Shown here one piece after another: positions 4,382 to 56,649 of a stretch of 64,000 nucleotides of DNA. The first letter of the stretch is position 1; each line of letters starts with the position of its first letter. The position numbers were made by a program, and so were the translations under genes. The notes under the pieces are model-generated. The model was given only the letters and a program-made list of their open reading frames with translations, was not told where the DNA came from and made no database searches. This DNA is from Candidatus Aminicenantes bacterium (GTDB lineage: Bacteria; Acidobacteriota; Aminicenantia; Aminicenantales; Saccharicenantaceae): contig CAWEJF010000015.1 in assembly GCA_963809345.1 (NCBI GenBank), positions 96,193-160,192 on the forward strand. The letters run 5' to 3'.

Positions 4382-4955
4382 ATGGAAGAAGGGACAAGGC
4401 CTCCCGTGGACGAGAGAGAGATCATCGAAGGCTGTCTGCGGGGGAGCCCTGCGTCCAACCGGGCGATGGTCGAGGCGTACGGAAACTTGGTCCTTTCCGT
4501 TGCCCTCAACGTCCTCGGCAACAGGCAGGACGCCGAGGACGTGTGCCAGGAGACCTTCCTCCAGGTCTTCCGCCGTCTCGACCGCTACGACCGGGAGAGG
4601 AGCTTCAAGACCTGGCTCCTGACCATCGGTTACAGGAGGGCGCTCGACATGCTCAGGAAAAAGAGGCGTTTCACGGAATTCTCGGTTCGGGCCCGGTTCG
4701 AGCCGGCCGTGGCCAGGCAGGGAAGGGAATCCCCATCCCGCCGATCCGGCGCCCCTGCCCTCGAAGCTGCTCGAGGTCCTTTCCCCGCGTGAGCGGACGG
4801 CGCTTTGCCTGTGGGCCAACGAGGGCTATACGGCCAAGGACATTTCCCAGGTCCTGGCCTGCTCGGCCTCGACGGCCCGGGTCTATCTTTTCAACGCCCG
4901 TCGCAAGATCAAGGCCCTGCTGGAGAACGACCATGCCCTGTTGCAAAACGGTTGA
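4382..4955 (+). pseudogene. ECF (sigma-70 family) sigma factor, reading frame broken once (indel or decay)
   Basis: Region 2 (DAEDVCQETFLQVFRRLDRYDRERSFKTWLLTIGYRRALD) lies in ORF 4382..4792. Region 4 HTH (LSPRERTALCLWANEGYTAKDISQVLACSASTARVYLFNARRKIKALL) is in the +1 frame ending at TGA 4953-4955. The join must lie near the C-runs at about 4731-4740. Confidence 0.8.
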
Positions 4956-51888: not shown

Positions 51889-54800
51889 GTGGAACGCAAG
51901 CCGCCTGTCCAGACCGGCCCCCGTGGCAGGGCCGATGCCCGTGCCCGCTTCGAGACCTGGCTGGCCGCACGGGCCCGGAACGTGCCGCGCGTCTCCTACC
52001 CGCCGGAGCTGCCCATCACCCCGCGCGCCGAAGAGATCGTGGCCGCTCTGCGCTCGCCGCGCCGCCGGGTCGTCATCATCTCGGGCGAGACGGGCTGCGG
52101 CAAGAGCACGCAGATCCCGAAGATGTGCCTCGAGGCGGGGAGGGGCGTCGCCGGCCGCATCGGGGTCACCCAGCCGCGGCGCCTCGCCGCGATGACCATC
52201 GCCTCGCGCATCGCCGAAGAGCTCGGCGAGCCGCTCGGGCGGTCCGTCGGCTACAAGATCCGCTTTCAGGACCGGACCTCGCGCGACGGCTACATCAAGA
52301 TCATGACCGACGGCATCCTCCTCGCCGAGACGCAGGGCGACCACGGCCTCTACGAGTACGACACCATCATCATCGACGAGGCCCACGAGCGCTCGCTCAA
52401 CATCGACTTCCTCCTCGGCATCATGCGCCGGCTCCTCGACGAGCGGCCCGACCTCAAGCTCGTCATCACCTCGGCGACGCTCGACACGGAGAAGTTCTCC
52501 AAGGCCTTCAAGAACGCCCCGATCATCGAGGTCAGCGGGCGCGTCTATCCGGTCGAGGTCGACTACCGCGTGCCCGACAAGGAGGAGGCCGAGGACAAGG
52601 ACTATGTCGATCAGGCCGTCGAGGCGATCGAGTACCTGCGGCGCGAGAAGCCGCCTGGCGACATCCTCGTCTTCATGCCGACCGAGCAGGACATCCTCGA
52701 GACCTGCCGCATGCTCGAGGGGCGCAAGTGGCCGCTGGTGAAGGTGCTGCCGCTCTTCTCGCGCCTGCCGGCGGGCCAGCAGCGCCTCGTCTACACCGTG
52801 ACCGTGCCGAAGATCGTCGTGGCCACGAACGTCGCCGAGACCTCGCTGACCATCCCCGGCATCCGCTATGTCGTGGACACGGGTGTGGCGCGGATCGCCC
52901 AGTACCAGCCCGGGACGCGCATCAACAGCCTGCCCATCTCGCCCATCTCGCGGGCCTCGGCCGATCAGCGCAAGGGGCGGTGCGGCCGGGTCAAAGAAGG
53001 GCTGTGCGTCCGCCTTTATAGCCAGGTCGATTACGAGTCGCGCGACGAGTTCACCCAGCCGGAGATCCTGCGGTCCGACCTGGCCGAGGTCATCCTGCGC
53101 ATGACCGACCTCGGATTGGGCGACCCGCTCCTGTTCCCGTTCATCGACAAGCCCGCCTCCAAGGCCGTCCACGACGGCTACGACACCCTCGTCGAGCTCG
53201 GCGCCGTCCGCAAATCGGGGGCGCCAATACCAATTCCCCAATTCCCGCTGGGAGCTGACGGAGAACGGCCGGGCCATGGCCCGGATGCAGGTCGACCCGC
53301 GGCTGTCGCGCATGCTCATCGAGGCCCGGACCGAAAATTGCCTCTCCGAGGTGTCGGTGCTGGCCGCGGCGCTCAGCATCCGCGATCCGCGCGAGCGCCC
53401 GCCGGACAAGGCCCAGCAGGCCGACGCGGTCCATGCCGTCTTCAAGCACCCCGACTCGGATTTTCTCGTCCTGCTCAACATCTGGAACCGCTATCACGGC
53501 GATTTCGAGAAGCTCGGCTCGCTCGTCCAGAAGAGGCGCTTCTGCCACGAGAACTTCCTGTCGTTCCCGCGTATGCGCGAGTGGGTCTACCTCCACGCGG
53601 AACTTGAGAACGCCCTCAGGGAATTGGCGCGCGGCCGCATCATGTCCCAGCCGGCAATCCTGCATCAGGATATCTCGCCGGCGCTCTATGGCGCGATCCA
53701 CCGATCCGTCCTCAGCGGATATCTCTCGAACATCGCCGCGCACAAGGAAAAGAACGTCTATTCCGGTGCCAAGAACCGCGAGGTCACGCTATGGCCCGGC
53801 TCGGTCCTCTTTGCCAAGGCCGCTCCCTGGATCGTCTCGACCGAGGTCGTCCGGACTTCGCGTCTTTTCGCCCGGACCGCCGCCCGCATCGATCCCGCCT
53901 GGCTCGAGCGCCTGGGCGGCCCGCTCTGCAAGCGCTCCTACTCCGACGCCGCCTGGGACCGCGCCCGTGGCGAGGTCACGGCCAAAGAACGCGTCACGCT
54001 CTTCGGGCTCGAGATCGTCCGCGAGCGCCGCGTCTCCTATGCCCGAGTCAACCCGGCCGAAGCCCATGAGATCTTCGTCATGAACGGCCTCGTCGAGGGC
54101 GAGATCGACGACCCGCCGCCCTTCCTCGTCCACAACCTCGAGCTCCAGCGCAAGGTCGAGGCCATGGAGGAGAAGCTCCGCCGCCGCGACATCCTCGTCG
54201 CCGAAGGCGAGATCGCCAAGTTCTATTCGGAGAAGCTCCCGGGCATCCACGACATCCGCACCCTCCGCAAGCTCCTCAAGGACGTCCACGACCGGGGCGG
54301 CGCCGACTCCTTCCTGCGCCTCGCCGAGGACGCGCTCCTCAACTACCACCCGGACGAAGCCGCCGTGGCCGCCTTCCCCGATTCCGTAGAGATCGCCGGC
54401 CGGCCATTCCGTGCGGTCTACCATTTCGCCCCCGGCGAGGAGGACGACGGCGTCACGCTGACCGTGCCGCCCGAGCTCCTGAGCGCCATCCCGGTCGGGC
54501 GCCTCGAGTGGGGCGTCGCCGGGCAGTACCAGGACAAGATCGCCGCGCTCATCAAAGGCCTGCCGAAGCGCTACCGCAAGCTCCTCGTCCCGGCAGGGGA
54601 GAAGGCCGAGGAGATCGCCCGCGAGATGCCCAAGGCCCCCGAGGAAGTGCCGCTCTTCAAGGCCGTCGCCGAGTTCGTCAAGCGCCGTTACAGCGTCGAT
54701 ATCCCGGCCCGCGAATGGGCCCTGGCCGACGTCCCGAAGCACCTGCGCATGCGCGTAGCCGTCGTCGACCCGGGGACGGGACGCGTCATCGACGCCGGGC

Positions 54801-55945
54801 GCGACGTCGAGCTTCTGCGGAAAAAGATCGGCGCCGCCGACGAGGCCCCGTCCAAGGTCGAATCGCCGGCGTGGCAGGAAGCGCGGCGCGCCTGGGATAA
54901 GTCGGGCCTGACGGAATGGACGTTCGGCGATCTGCCCGAGAAGATCGCGGTCGGCACCTCGCTCACGGCCTACCCCGCCCTCGTCGTCGAAGAAAAGAGG
55001 GTGTCAGACCTACCTTTTACCCAAAACCGGGTAAAAGGTAGGTCTGACACCCTCTTGCCCGCCCTTGATTCGGTCGCCGTACGGCTCTTCCCAACGCGGG
55101 CCGAGGCTGCGGCCGTCGCACAAAGCCGGCGTCCGCTGGCTCCTGATGCGCAAGTTCGTAAAAGACCTGGCTTTCGTCCGCCGCTACCACAAGATCCCGG
55201 CCGATCTTGAGCGGGCGGCGCTCTATTTCGGCGGGCGGGACGCCGTCGAGCGGGCCATCGAGGAAGCCCTGGCCCGTAACGTCTTCGAGCGCAATATCCG
55301 CACCGAAGCCGAGTACAAGGCGTATGAAGCCGAGGTCGGCCGGACGCTCTTCGAGAAAGGACATGCCCTGACCCAGACGGTCGTCAAGATCGTCGAGCTC
55401 CATGCTAAGGTCCGCGCCGATCTGGGGAAGGAGAGCGGCGGGGAGGGGCGGCAGCTTCGGGTGGCGCGGCGACGGCACGCGCCGGCAAGCCCGCAAAGAC
55501 CCTCAGCTTGTATGAGCTCAGCAAGCTCAAAGAGCGGGTCAAGCCCGAGTACCTCGACGCCATTGCCGCCGACCTCGAGCGCCTCGTCCCGAAGGACTTC
55601 CTCGCCGGCTATCCCATCGACCGGCTCGTCCGCATCCCGCGCTATCTCGAGGGCCTCAAGATCCGGCTCGAACGCGCCCGGATCGCTCCCGCAAAAGATA
55701 AGCTGAAGGCCGCCCAGATCGAACCCTACGTCTTCGAGCTGACTCGTCTCGAAGGCGAGCTCAGAAAAGGGGGACAAGGTATCGCGTCCCCGATTTCGGT
55801 GGAGAAGCGCGCCGCCATCGACGAGCTCCGCTGGATGATCGAGGAGTTCAAGCTGGCCCTCTTCGCCCCCGAGATCAAGACCGCCTTCCCCATCTCCGCC
55901 GTCCGCCTGGCCCGCAAGATCGCCGAGATCGACGTCCTCGTCTAA
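51889..55945 (+). CDS. hrpA: ATP-dependent RNA helicase HrpA (DEAH), reading frame broken three times and carrying a palindromic insertion
   Basis: GETGCGKST, IIIDEAHERS, ITSATLD, VATNVAETSLTIPG, QRKGRCGR, then HA2/OB and a DUF3418-like tail. The sequence is spread over ORFs 51889..53607, 53276..55210, 55065..55706 (middle part) and 55508..55945. Confidence 0.9.
54995..55056. repeat. perfect inverted repeat, 28-bp arms and 6-nt loop, inside hrpA
   Basis: AAGAGGGTGTCAGACCTACCTTTTACCC (54995-55022) is the exact reverse complement of 55029-55056. Loop is AAAACC. Confidence 0.95.
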
Positions 55946-56056: not shown

Positions 56057-56254
56057 GTGAGGACGAACATCGTGATCGATGACGCGCTCGTCGAGGAGGC
56101 CATGGCCCTTTCGAAGCTCAAGACGAAAAGGGACGTCGTGCAAAGGGCCCTTGAGGCGTATGTCCGCGTCCTCAAGAAAAAGGACCTTCGCATACTCAGG
56201 GGCAAAATCCGGCTCGCCGAGGGCTACGACTACAAGAAGCTGAGGGCGCGGTGA
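56057..56254 (+). CDS. vapB: type II antitoxin, VapB (DUF2191-like) family
   Basis: MRTNIVIDDALVEEAMALSKLKTKRDVVQRALEAYV. GTG 56057 preceded by GAGG (the ORF opens at 56048). Confidence 0.75.
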   Translation: MRTNIVIDDALVEEAMALSKLKTKRDVVQRALEAYVRVLKKKDLRILRGKIRLAEGYDYKKLRAR

Positions 56255-56649
56255 TCCTGGTCGATTCCTCGGTTCTGATCGACTTCCTGGAAGGGCGCGA
56301 GAACGCCCCCGTCAACCGCTTCATCGAGGTCCTCGACCACGACATCCCCTTTGGCATAAGCCCGCTCACGATCCTCGAGGTCCTTCAGGGCGCGGCGACG
56401 GAGAAGGATTTCGCGACCTTGCGCGAATATCTTGGCAGCCAGACGGTCTACGACCTAACCGGGGGCCTCGAGTCGTACGCCGAGGCCGCGAAGATATTCT
56501 TCGCCCTGCGAAAGAAAGGGATGTCCGTGGGGAGCTCGATGGACTGCCTGATCGCCCAGACGGCCATCGAGCATGCCCTATCTCTCCTTCACAACGATTC
56601 CGATTTCGACCGGATAGCGAAGGTCTCATCCCTTAAGATCTACGTGTAA
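56251..56649 (+). CDS. vapC: PIN-domain toxin VapC
   Basis: MILVDSSVLIDFL... PIN acidic-residue pattern. GTGA overlap with the antitoxin. Confidence 0.85.
   Translation: MILVDSSVLIDFLEGRENAPVNRFIEVLDHDIPFGISPLTILEVLQGAATEKDFATLREYLGSQTVYDLTGGLESYAEAAKIFFALRKKGMSVGSSMDCLIAQTAIEHALSLLHNDSDFDRIAKVSSLKIYV

Follow-up and report, generated by a model that had tools for sequence, protein, structure and literature searches.

A perfect in-frame hairpin in hrpA of Candidatus Aminicenantes belongs to a dispersed palindromic repeat family associated with a RAYT-like transposase

Introduction

How does a perfect palindrome of 62 nt come to lie, free of stop codons, inside the coding sequence of an RNA helicase? 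The question is raised by a stretch of 64,000 nt from a Candidatus Aminicenantes bacterium (GenBank assembly GCA_963809345.1, contig CAWEJF010000015.1, positions 96,193 to 160,192 of the forward strand), below called the window, whose own numbering is used throughout. Here hrpA, the gene of a DEAH-box RNA helicase (51889..55945, + strand), carries a hairpin in the region encoding its C-terminal DUF3418 part. Our analysis leads, with good confidence, to the conclusion that this hairpin is similar to the repetitive extragenic palindromes (REPs) and to their paired, hairpin-forming version (REPINs), being of the TIRtron type, presumably mobilised by an enzyme resembling REP-associated tyrosine transposases (RAYTs) and tolerated in a loop of HrpA.

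The hairpin in hrpA

The left arm of the hairpin (AAGAG-GGTGTCAGACCTACCTTTTACCC; 54995..55022, + strand), found by the inverted-repeat search, is followed by the 6-nt loop AAAACC (55023..55028, +) and by the right arm (GGTAAAAGGTAGGTCTGACACC; 55029..55056, +), the perfect reverse complement of the left one. Thus, the 28-nt arms are AAGAGGGTGTCAGACCTACCTTTTACCC and its complement, paired at 28 of 28 positions, and they belong to subfamily A of the family described below. A preliminary description of the window had given precisely these coordinates, arms and loop, and its remark that the arm is poorer in G+C than the gene is confirmed (0.48-0.52 at the hairpin, about 0.65-0.78 in the surroundings), as is the lack of a second copy within the window, even with 3 mismatches permitted. 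The arm has no match in shuffles of the window, and the hairpin is the only strong inverted repeat in it, the runner-up being 26 nt long at 77%. The predicted folding energy is -55.6 kcal/mol for RNA (z = -12.1; none of 200 shuffles folds as stably) and -33.6 kcal/mol for DNA. The whole window has no match in Rfam 15 at the gathering threshold, and ARAGORN finds no tRNA or tmRNA in it.

The reading frame passes through the hairpin without a stop (...AYPALVVEE-KRVSDLPFTQNRVKGRSDTLL-PALDSVAVRLFPTR...), the peptide over the insert region of HrpA being ...VVEEKRVSDLPFTQNR.... The codon-level comparison with orthologues in which the site is empty (loci L139, L140, L141, L145) shows that the insert KRVSDLPFTQNRVKGRSDTLL (54995..55057, +) has 63 nt, or 21 codons, that is, the 62-nt palindrome and one base, in agreement with the approximately 21 in-frame codons reported earlier. 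Direct reading shows that the right arm is open in one frame of three, with TAA, TAG and TGA in the other two, and that the left arm is open in all three. The DEAD and Helicase_C domains of HrpA are N-terminal, encoded upstream of the hairpin, and DUF3418 (327 bits) spans it.

A dispersed family of palindromic repeats

When one genome of each species was searched with an exact 22-mer from the arm, 20 stretches came up, all from two metagenome-assembled genomes (MAGs): 'Candidatus Aminicenantes' MFD00905.bin.1.6 (CAVTOI01, with Mb-size contigs) and CAYOYQ01 (labelled 'uncultured Eubacteriales', with SPAdes-style NODE contigs). A degenerate arm pattern, run on metagenome contigs, yields 118 stretches. 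When the arms are paired across all loci, 124 distinct hairpins are obtained, coming from the two MAGs and about 100 metagenome contigs of several projects.

The consensus of the family is (Y)AAGA-N-GG(T/G)GTCA(G/A)A(C/T)CTACCTTTTACCC, followed by an A-/T-rich loop of 5-7 nt and by the complement. Four subfamilies are distinguished: A, which includes the window copy (left arm GGTGTCAGACC, right arm GGTCTGACACC), B (left GGGGTCAAACC, right GGTTTGACCCC), C (left GGGGTCAGATC, right GATCTGACCCC) and D (left GGGGTCAGGTC, right GACCTGACCCC). Changes in one arm are always compensated in the opposite arm. In particular, all four Watson-Crick pairs are seen between the variable position N and N', arm positions 3-30 are paired in 62-100% of 115 copies, and four arm positions covary in these copies (for example, GC in 77 and TA in 38, or AT in 60 and GC in 54). 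At the scored variable positions pairing amounts to 95.6%, compared with 70.4% (maximum 75.1%) when the right arms are shuffled among copies. The covariation counts reflect few ancestral events, amplified many times, and show that every successful master copy retained a perfect stem.

The usual loop of subfamily A has 5 nt (GTTTT/AAAAC), with a gap of 7 nt between the 22-mers; all four hrpA copies have a 6-nt loop, the gap being 8 nt in the window, L008 and L070. Longer loops are also found (L027 2170, L046 1961, L101 27, L130 9198, as well as L010 3905 with 28 nt and L064 99 with 49 nt), and an insert of some 20 nt that recurs in the loop (cttttcggggccttctcgag, with variants) points to a separate sub-variant. 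Moreover, three subfamily A hairpins (L016 1418, L019 5330, L005 1644) are enclosed by the partly palindromic sequence GATGGGGTCA ... TGACCCCATC, which resembles the start of subfamily B arms and could reflect the nesting of one insertion in another or symmetrically duplicated arm ends.

No target-site duplication or flanking direct repeat is seen at 121 copies, and no conserved target motif was detected at them outside AAGA-N / N'-TCTT. The family is mainly extragenic (119 of the 124 copies), and the only convincing intragenic copies are those in hrpA, one each in the window, L008 and L070 and a pair in L045. Of all copies, 17 have 60 or more open codons on each side, and the 14 clearest of these were translated; outside hrpA the open reading frames (ORFs) running through a hairpin turned out to be antisense or of low complexity, with the real gene beginning after the hairpin, and such copies were treated as intergenic. 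A profile of the tandem-duplicated hairpin peptide matched five short hypothetical ORFs; it did not recover HrpA and is therefore uninformative about other hosts.

The bracketed transposase

Nine pairs of hairpins, 1.0-1.4 kb apart, enclose one and the same conserved ORF of about 315-330 amino acids, with the motifs PNHFHL (HUH) and SRYIHLNPV. Its product matches Pfam Y1_Tnp (IS200-like) with 43.8-48.5 bits, the cut-off being 23, and its sole NCBIfam match is the 'REP-associated tyrosine transposase' model REP_Tyr_transpos, covered in full. According to tblastn, full-length genes of this transposase are present in 12 loci, 9 of which adjoin paired hairpins, with one transposase locus per MAG among the loci examined. 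The 3' hairpin begins 4-80 nt past the stop codon of the transposase gene or overlaps it.

The subfamily of the flanking hairpins follows the transposase. Transposases at least 81% identical to that of CAVTOI are flanked by subfamily A, and those 57-63% identical to it by B, C or D.

For comparison, protein sequences were taken from Additional file 5 of Di Nocera, De Gregorio and Rocco 2013 (BMC Genomics 14:522, PMC3733652), who described TIRtrons, in which genes of RAYT-like proteins (TIRYTs) lie between long inverted repeats. In BLASTP the TIRYTs score 100-126 bits overall (sml1152 with 37% identity and 126 bits, gbm2474 with 39%, pfs148A, dau2153; these four, the best matches, have 105-126 bits), and the classical RAYTs 24-52 bits (E. 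coli b228 with 24, pfs3939 with 52). Judged by its sequence, the bracketed protein is a putative RAYT-like transposase, closest to the TIRYT proteins.

Conservation of the insert in related genomes

The orthologous hrpA of locus L008 (CAVTOI010000002.1), with 89-92% DNA identity to that of the window, carries the same 62 nt at the same codon. The identical 21 residues are present in the homologues P0001 (from an ENA contig) and P0002, the latter counted together with L008, and L070 (from a JGI contig) has the insert with one substitution in the loop, N to D, within 786 uninterrupted codons that run through the hairpin to the hrpA stop. Hence, three other assemblies (L008/P0002, P0001 and L070) contain the insert at the same codon, with flanks 91-92% identical. 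Homologous residues at this site in orthologues had been named in the preliminary description as grounds for refutation, and the outcome is mixed: the insert is identical in the nearest relatives and missing from those slightly further away, and others have different subfamilies.

The arms are conserved better than their surroundings. The window, L008 and L070 show 32-35 mismatches per 400 flanking nucleotides (200 on each side) and none in the 56 arm nucleotides. About 5 arm differences per pair are expected from the flank divergence, the calculated probability of observing none being approximately 0.006 per pair. Other orthologous hairpin pairs behave likewise, including intergenic copies, and at some orthologous sites the subfamily differs between genomes (for example, B in L055 and A in L125). 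The identity of the arms points to a constraint on the DNA or RNA hairpin itself, to homogenisation or turnover against other copies, or to both.

In several orthologous pairs with conserved flanks the hairpin loop is inverted, A-rich in one copy and T-rich in the other (L003 7080 and L011 2509; L004 7461 and L068 1859; L023 and L081). Since the loops flip within the palindrome, the orientation of insertion cannot be read from the orientation of the loop, and a transcription-strand bias derived from it (GTTTT versus AAAAC) was rejected, as loops are flipped between orthologous copies.

The two MAGs found with the exact 22-mer share orthologous loci at 81-85% nucleotide identity, the transposase locus among them (CAYOYQ01 loci L001, L004, L010, L011, L013, L014, L016, L017, L019, L020), and the label 'uncultured Eubacteriales' of CAYOYQ01 is probably wrong. 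The labels Planctomycetota or Moduliflexus on some HrpA homologues are likewise doubtful.

Position of the insert in the protein and a possible course of events

In the AlphaFold2 model of P0002 (74 homologues, mean pLDDT 87.7) the insert residues 306-326 form a coil between two strands (295-303 and 332-337); pLDDT falls under 50 at residues 312-322 and exceeds 90 in the neighbours. The equivalent stretch of E. coli HrpA, AWPALVDERDSVAIKLF, is a short turn (full-length structures 9GGR and 9GFT). According to the model, the 21 extra residues are a disordered surface loop at a beta-hairpin turn of the DUF3418 region; this is the kind of location that the preliminary description had suggested looking for.

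The presumed mobile unit consists of two 28-nt arms (AAGA-N-GGTGTCAGACCTACCTTTTACCC), head to head around an A-/T-rich loop of 5-7 nt. By analogy with the IS200/IS605 and REP/RAYT systems, and on the basis of the established biochemistry of IS200/IS605 TnpA and of E. coli TnpA-REP, the transposase would recognise the folded single-stranded hairpin and would cut and paste it without target duplication. One copy would have landed by chance in hrpA, at the beta-hairpin turn of the C-terminal DUF3418 region, where the insertion would be filtered by frame, length and structural tolerance, so that within a coding region only a copy of 3n length in the right frame could persist. The hrpA copy may have survived because it has one stop-free frame, because its length is 63 nt (3n, owing to the extra loop base) and because it falls in a predicted disordered surface loop. 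Since then it has been inherited vertically through at least four lineages, about 9% apart in hrpA, with the arms unchanged.

The HrpA loop as a hot spot

The stretch following TSLTAYPAL was compared among the 24 nearest HrpA homologues (69% identity or more), and some repeat is present at this loop in 20 of them. The hairpin family is represented by A-type copies in P0001 and P0002, by B-type copies (KMGSNLPFAAKGRFDPIL) in P0007-9 and P0023, by a D-type copy read in another frame in P0012, and by a remnant in P0018. A second palindromic repeat family, below called family 2, with an arm of about AAATCGGGGACACAATACCAATTCCCC, is read as KMGDMIPISHFS or KIGDTIPIPQFP in P0004-6, P0010, P0014, P0016, P0017 and P0024. 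The loop is empty in P0003, P0011, P0013 and P0015. Moreover, L045, a metagenome locus outside these 24, has a C-type copy at the same loop, and in more distant HrpA homologues the site is empty. Thus, the HrpA loop is a hot spot for four hairpin subfamilies and for the second family. As the insertion points vary by a few codons, and filled and empty states are interleaved on the neighbour-joining tree, there have been several independent gains, clean losses, or both.

Family 2 also occurs elsewhere in hrpA. The window gene has solo arms only, one at 53212..53245 (+), which carries the first frame-breaking indel (see below), and one at 55770..55795 (-), with the in-frame reading ...GGQGIASPIS...; at the latter site P0003, P0005 and P0007 have whole family-2 hairpins. 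In relatives family 2 lies in frame at up to three hrpA sites, being read as GTQYQFPNS, GHGIVSPIS or KMGDMIPISHFS depending on frame and strand (L008 5013, 5520, 7627 and 7820; L144, L140, L142). The hrpA of L045 has a second in-frame copy of the hairpin, GKRGSDLPFTQNSLKSRSDPFV, at 4509-4560 (-), just before HLHADISPALYG; the same site is that of a family-2 arm in L008 and L070, forming a second shared soft spot in HrpA.

Comparison with known repeat systems

The repeats of TIRtrons are of moderate abundance, often dimeric, and share the common motif GGGGWSAS (PMC3733652). As in TIRtrons, the Aminicenantes system combines a Y1/HUH transposase longer than classical RAYTs with long dispersed repeats on both sides. 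The motif, which was the only basis of the repeat comparison, is matched by subfamilies C and D (GGGGTCAG) and by family 2 (GGGGACAC), whereas subfamilies A (GGTGTCAG) and B (GGGGTCAA) are each one position off. Unlike the TIRtron repeats, the dispersed unit of Aminicenantes nearly always has two arms set closely head to head, which form a 28-bp hairpin, and neither this host nor these sequences are present in the paper of Di Nocera et al.

The REPIN-RAYT systems (Bertels and Rainey 2011, PLoS Genet, PMC3116915; Nunvar 2010; Bertels 2017, PMC5581495) are similar in having one transposase gene, of the IS200 superfamily, between inverted doublets that form hairpins. The doublets are mostly extragenic and kept at orthologous sites, with vertical inheritance and with subfamilies that track the transposase. 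However, direct reading of the Aminicenantes arm AAGANGGTGTCAGACCTACCTTTTACCC reveals no internal palindrome or terminal GTAG tag, copies per genome apparently number tens rather than hundreds, and the transposase is distant from the RAYTs of E. coli and Pseudomonas, scoring below the NCBIfam cut-off.

Rickettsia palindromic elements (RPEs) are 100-150 bp long, and to our knowledge no transposase is known for them. They reportedly reside in frame inside genes, as Ogata et al. 2000 and Claverie and Ogata 2003 are said to have found. Intragenic REPs have been described in helicases and repair genes, including two in HrpA of Opitutus terrae, Oter_0009 (Di Nocera et al. 2013, PMC3733652). Our hairpin shares with both kinds of element the in-frame palindrome, the 20-30 added residues and a loop that the fold can accommodate, frequent hosts being helicases and repair proteins. 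It differs in belonging to another sequence family and in that several subfamilies and family 2 enter one HrpA loop recurrently. Membership in the RPEs themselves is unlikely given the host phylum, size and transposase, and the resemblance is functional only.

The IS200/IS605 elements and their palindrome-associated (PATE) derivatives use a Y1/HUH transposase that acts on folded single-stranded hairpins without target duplication. Their subterminal hairpins are imperfect and unlike at the two ends, the transposase gene lies inside the element, and insertion occurs 3' of a target of 4-5 nt. The Y1/HUH enzyme, the hairpins and the lack of target duplication are common to both systems, but in Aminicenantes the mobile unit is a bare hairpin, with no target motif detected. 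No prior description of the arm sequences, or of palindromic repeats in Aminicenantes, was found in the searchable full-text literature. Thus, the kind of element is already known from intragenic REPs, RPEs and TIRtrons, while the sequence family and its Aminicenantes host are undescribed in that literature.

Frame changes in hrpA and neighbouring features

The hrpA gene of the window is not one continuous ORF, as three frame changes, overlooked in the preliminary description, are needed to read it. The first, at 53223, is a gain of 1 nt (G5 instead of G4) inside the family-2 arm; the second, at 55113, is also a gain of 1 nt (an extra C), 57 nt after the hairpin; the third has a net effect of +2 in a Gly-rich stretch (55425-55487). 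Compared with L008 and L070, these breaks are not shared with relatives, and the adjacent genes look intact. The hrpA of L008 has its own, different single-base break at a C-run, and that of L070 has none. The breaks of the window are either indel errors of long-read assembly or a sign of recent pseudogenisation in one genome. Frame tracing of the whole window by G+C at third codon positions was dropped, as it could not separate gene boundaries from frameshifts.

Directly downstream of hrpA there is a vapB antitoxin gene (56102-56254, +; Pfam VapB_antitoxin, 24.7 bits), followed by the gene of a PIN-domain VapC toxin (56251-56649, +; 54.7 bits). Relatives have other antitoxin genes in the same slot, PhdYeFM in L141 and L142 and VapB in L144. 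Because the antitoxin genes of relatives at this place differ, the region 3' of hrpA looks like a variable toxin-antitoxin slot. Another inverted repeat of the window, with 23 nt at 83% complementarity, lies near its beginning (178-200 and 244-266, 43 nt apart).

Alternative explanations

Among the alternatives, the one that survives best is compatible with a mobile origin. The element could be exapted, that is, kept for a role of its own, for example as a structure, sensitive to RNase III or to a helicase, that tunes hrpA expression, or as a protein or DNA site. Consistent with such a role are the identity of 56 of 56 arm nucleotides across three lineages with flanks about 9% apart, with the low probability calculated above, the occupation of the same HrpA loop in 20 of the 24 close homologues, an RNA stem of 28 bp, long enough to affect translation or cleavage, and the REPs in HrpA of Opitutus. 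However, conserved arms are found at intergenic orthologous copies too, which homogenisation or a constraint on recognition by the transposase would explain just as well, and close relatives (P0003, P0011, P0013, P0015) do without the insert. Moreover, the loop holds repeats of differing family, frame, length and exact position, a diversity that speaks for tolerance and not for a single function, and we consider exaptation unlikely.

A bolder version, to which we assign a slightly lower probability still, takes the HrpA turn for a preferred docking site of RAYT-driven hairpins and the resident hairpin for one kept perfect by its action in cis on hrpA. As part of the same proposal, the 28-bp structure in the mRNA might be cleaved by RNase III, might stall ribosomes, or might serve as a helicase-sensitive autoregulatory switch.

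The next alternative is a classical MITE (a miniature transposable element with inverted repeats), a deletion derivative of an insertion sequence with a DDE-type transposase, whose 28-bp terminal inverted repeats (TIRs) would be recognised in trans, as in the many MITEs with in-frame insertions. Perfect terminal repeats, small size and many dispersed copies would fit it, and the preliminary description had listed a MITE-like hairpin as one of three possibilities, drawing the analogy with RPEs. What holds of that proposal is a dispersed palindromic family and an in-frame insert; the MITE with terminal repeats and a DDE enzyme does not. Target-site duplications are found at 0 of 121 copies, in 139 loci no DDE transposase was seen inside a longer element bearing these ends, and the sole gene repeatedly bracketed encodes a Y1/HUH transposase. 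In addition, both arms of a copy invariably belong to one subfamily and their changes compensate each other, in keeping with a hairpin that is recognised in its folded form. We therefore regard a classical MITE as very improbable. Since there is no target-site duplication and the transposase is an IS200-like Y1/HUH enzyme of the RAYT type, REP/REPIN-like element, or TIR dimer of a 'TIRtron', is a better name for the hairpin than MITE.

An artefact of assembly, adapter ligation or foldback, also raised in the preliminary description, has a negligible probability. It might be suspected from the indel-type breaks at homopolymer runs in the window hrpA, which suggest an error-prone long-read assembly, and from the foreign look of a perfect palindrome with lower G+C. 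Still, the same insert with the same junctions is present in three independent assemblies (L008, P0001, L070), between which the gene around it diverges by 8-9%, and members of the family are present in over 100 contigs of several projects, SPAdes-style NODE contigs included. Copies occupy conserved genomic positions and flank the transposase gene, and the flanks in hrpA are colinear rather than inverted.

Equally negligible is a palindrome formed locally and de novo in hrpA by template switching or hairpin-primed repair, for which perfect arm complementarity would be the expected product, since the same sequence is present at more than 100 unrelated loci and its composition is unlike that of hrpA; the remnant of a hairpin-mediated rearrangement, considered earlier, is not supported, given flanks colinear with the orthologues and a multi-copy family.

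Several observations weigh against the REP/REPIN-like, TIRtron-type repeat that we prefer. The match of the transposase to REP_Tyr_transpos reaches 71.2 bits, below the curated equivalog cut-off of 80, tblastn finds no transposase gene in the window, and phmmer against PDB sequences gives no meaningful solved relative of the enzyme. What ties the transposase to the hairpins in these sequences is association and co-variation. The REPs known as GTAG/CGTC have a stem of 5-13 bp, a loop of 2-20 nt and a tag at one end (Table 1 of PMC3733652), whereas our hairpin, with its stem of 28 bp, has neither this tag nor the short imperfect stem of classical REPs. The copy number per genome looks low, with 13 of the 20 exact-22-mer stretches coming from the MAG with long contigs (3.6+ Mb). 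Finally, translation of the 21-codon insert is presumed, and the window hrpA with its three frame-breaking indels could be a pseudogene in its genome.

Implications

The REP/REPIN-like interpretation adds a well-resolved system of repeat and transposase, from the uncultivated Aminicenantes, to the class that comprises REPs, REPINs and TIRtrons. With filled and empty orthologous sites, four hairpin subfamilies and a second family in one loop, the constraint of a single open frame and the adjustment of length to 3n, hrpA offers an unusually clean natural experiment on how hairpins enter proteins. The conservation of the arms bears on the open question of whether REPIN-like elements are maintained by selection, by homogenisation or by the transposase. 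In practical terms, such palindromes in MAGs are not assembly artefacts, yet they can fall where indels are frequent and gene calls are broken as a result.

That one HrpA loop has been colonised repeatedly, with the arms perfectly conserved, adds a modest novelty to elements of this kind. If the hairpin does act in cis on hrpA, it would represent a domesticated REPIN within a coding region, and HrpA might then be functionally linked to RNA hairpins of the REP type.

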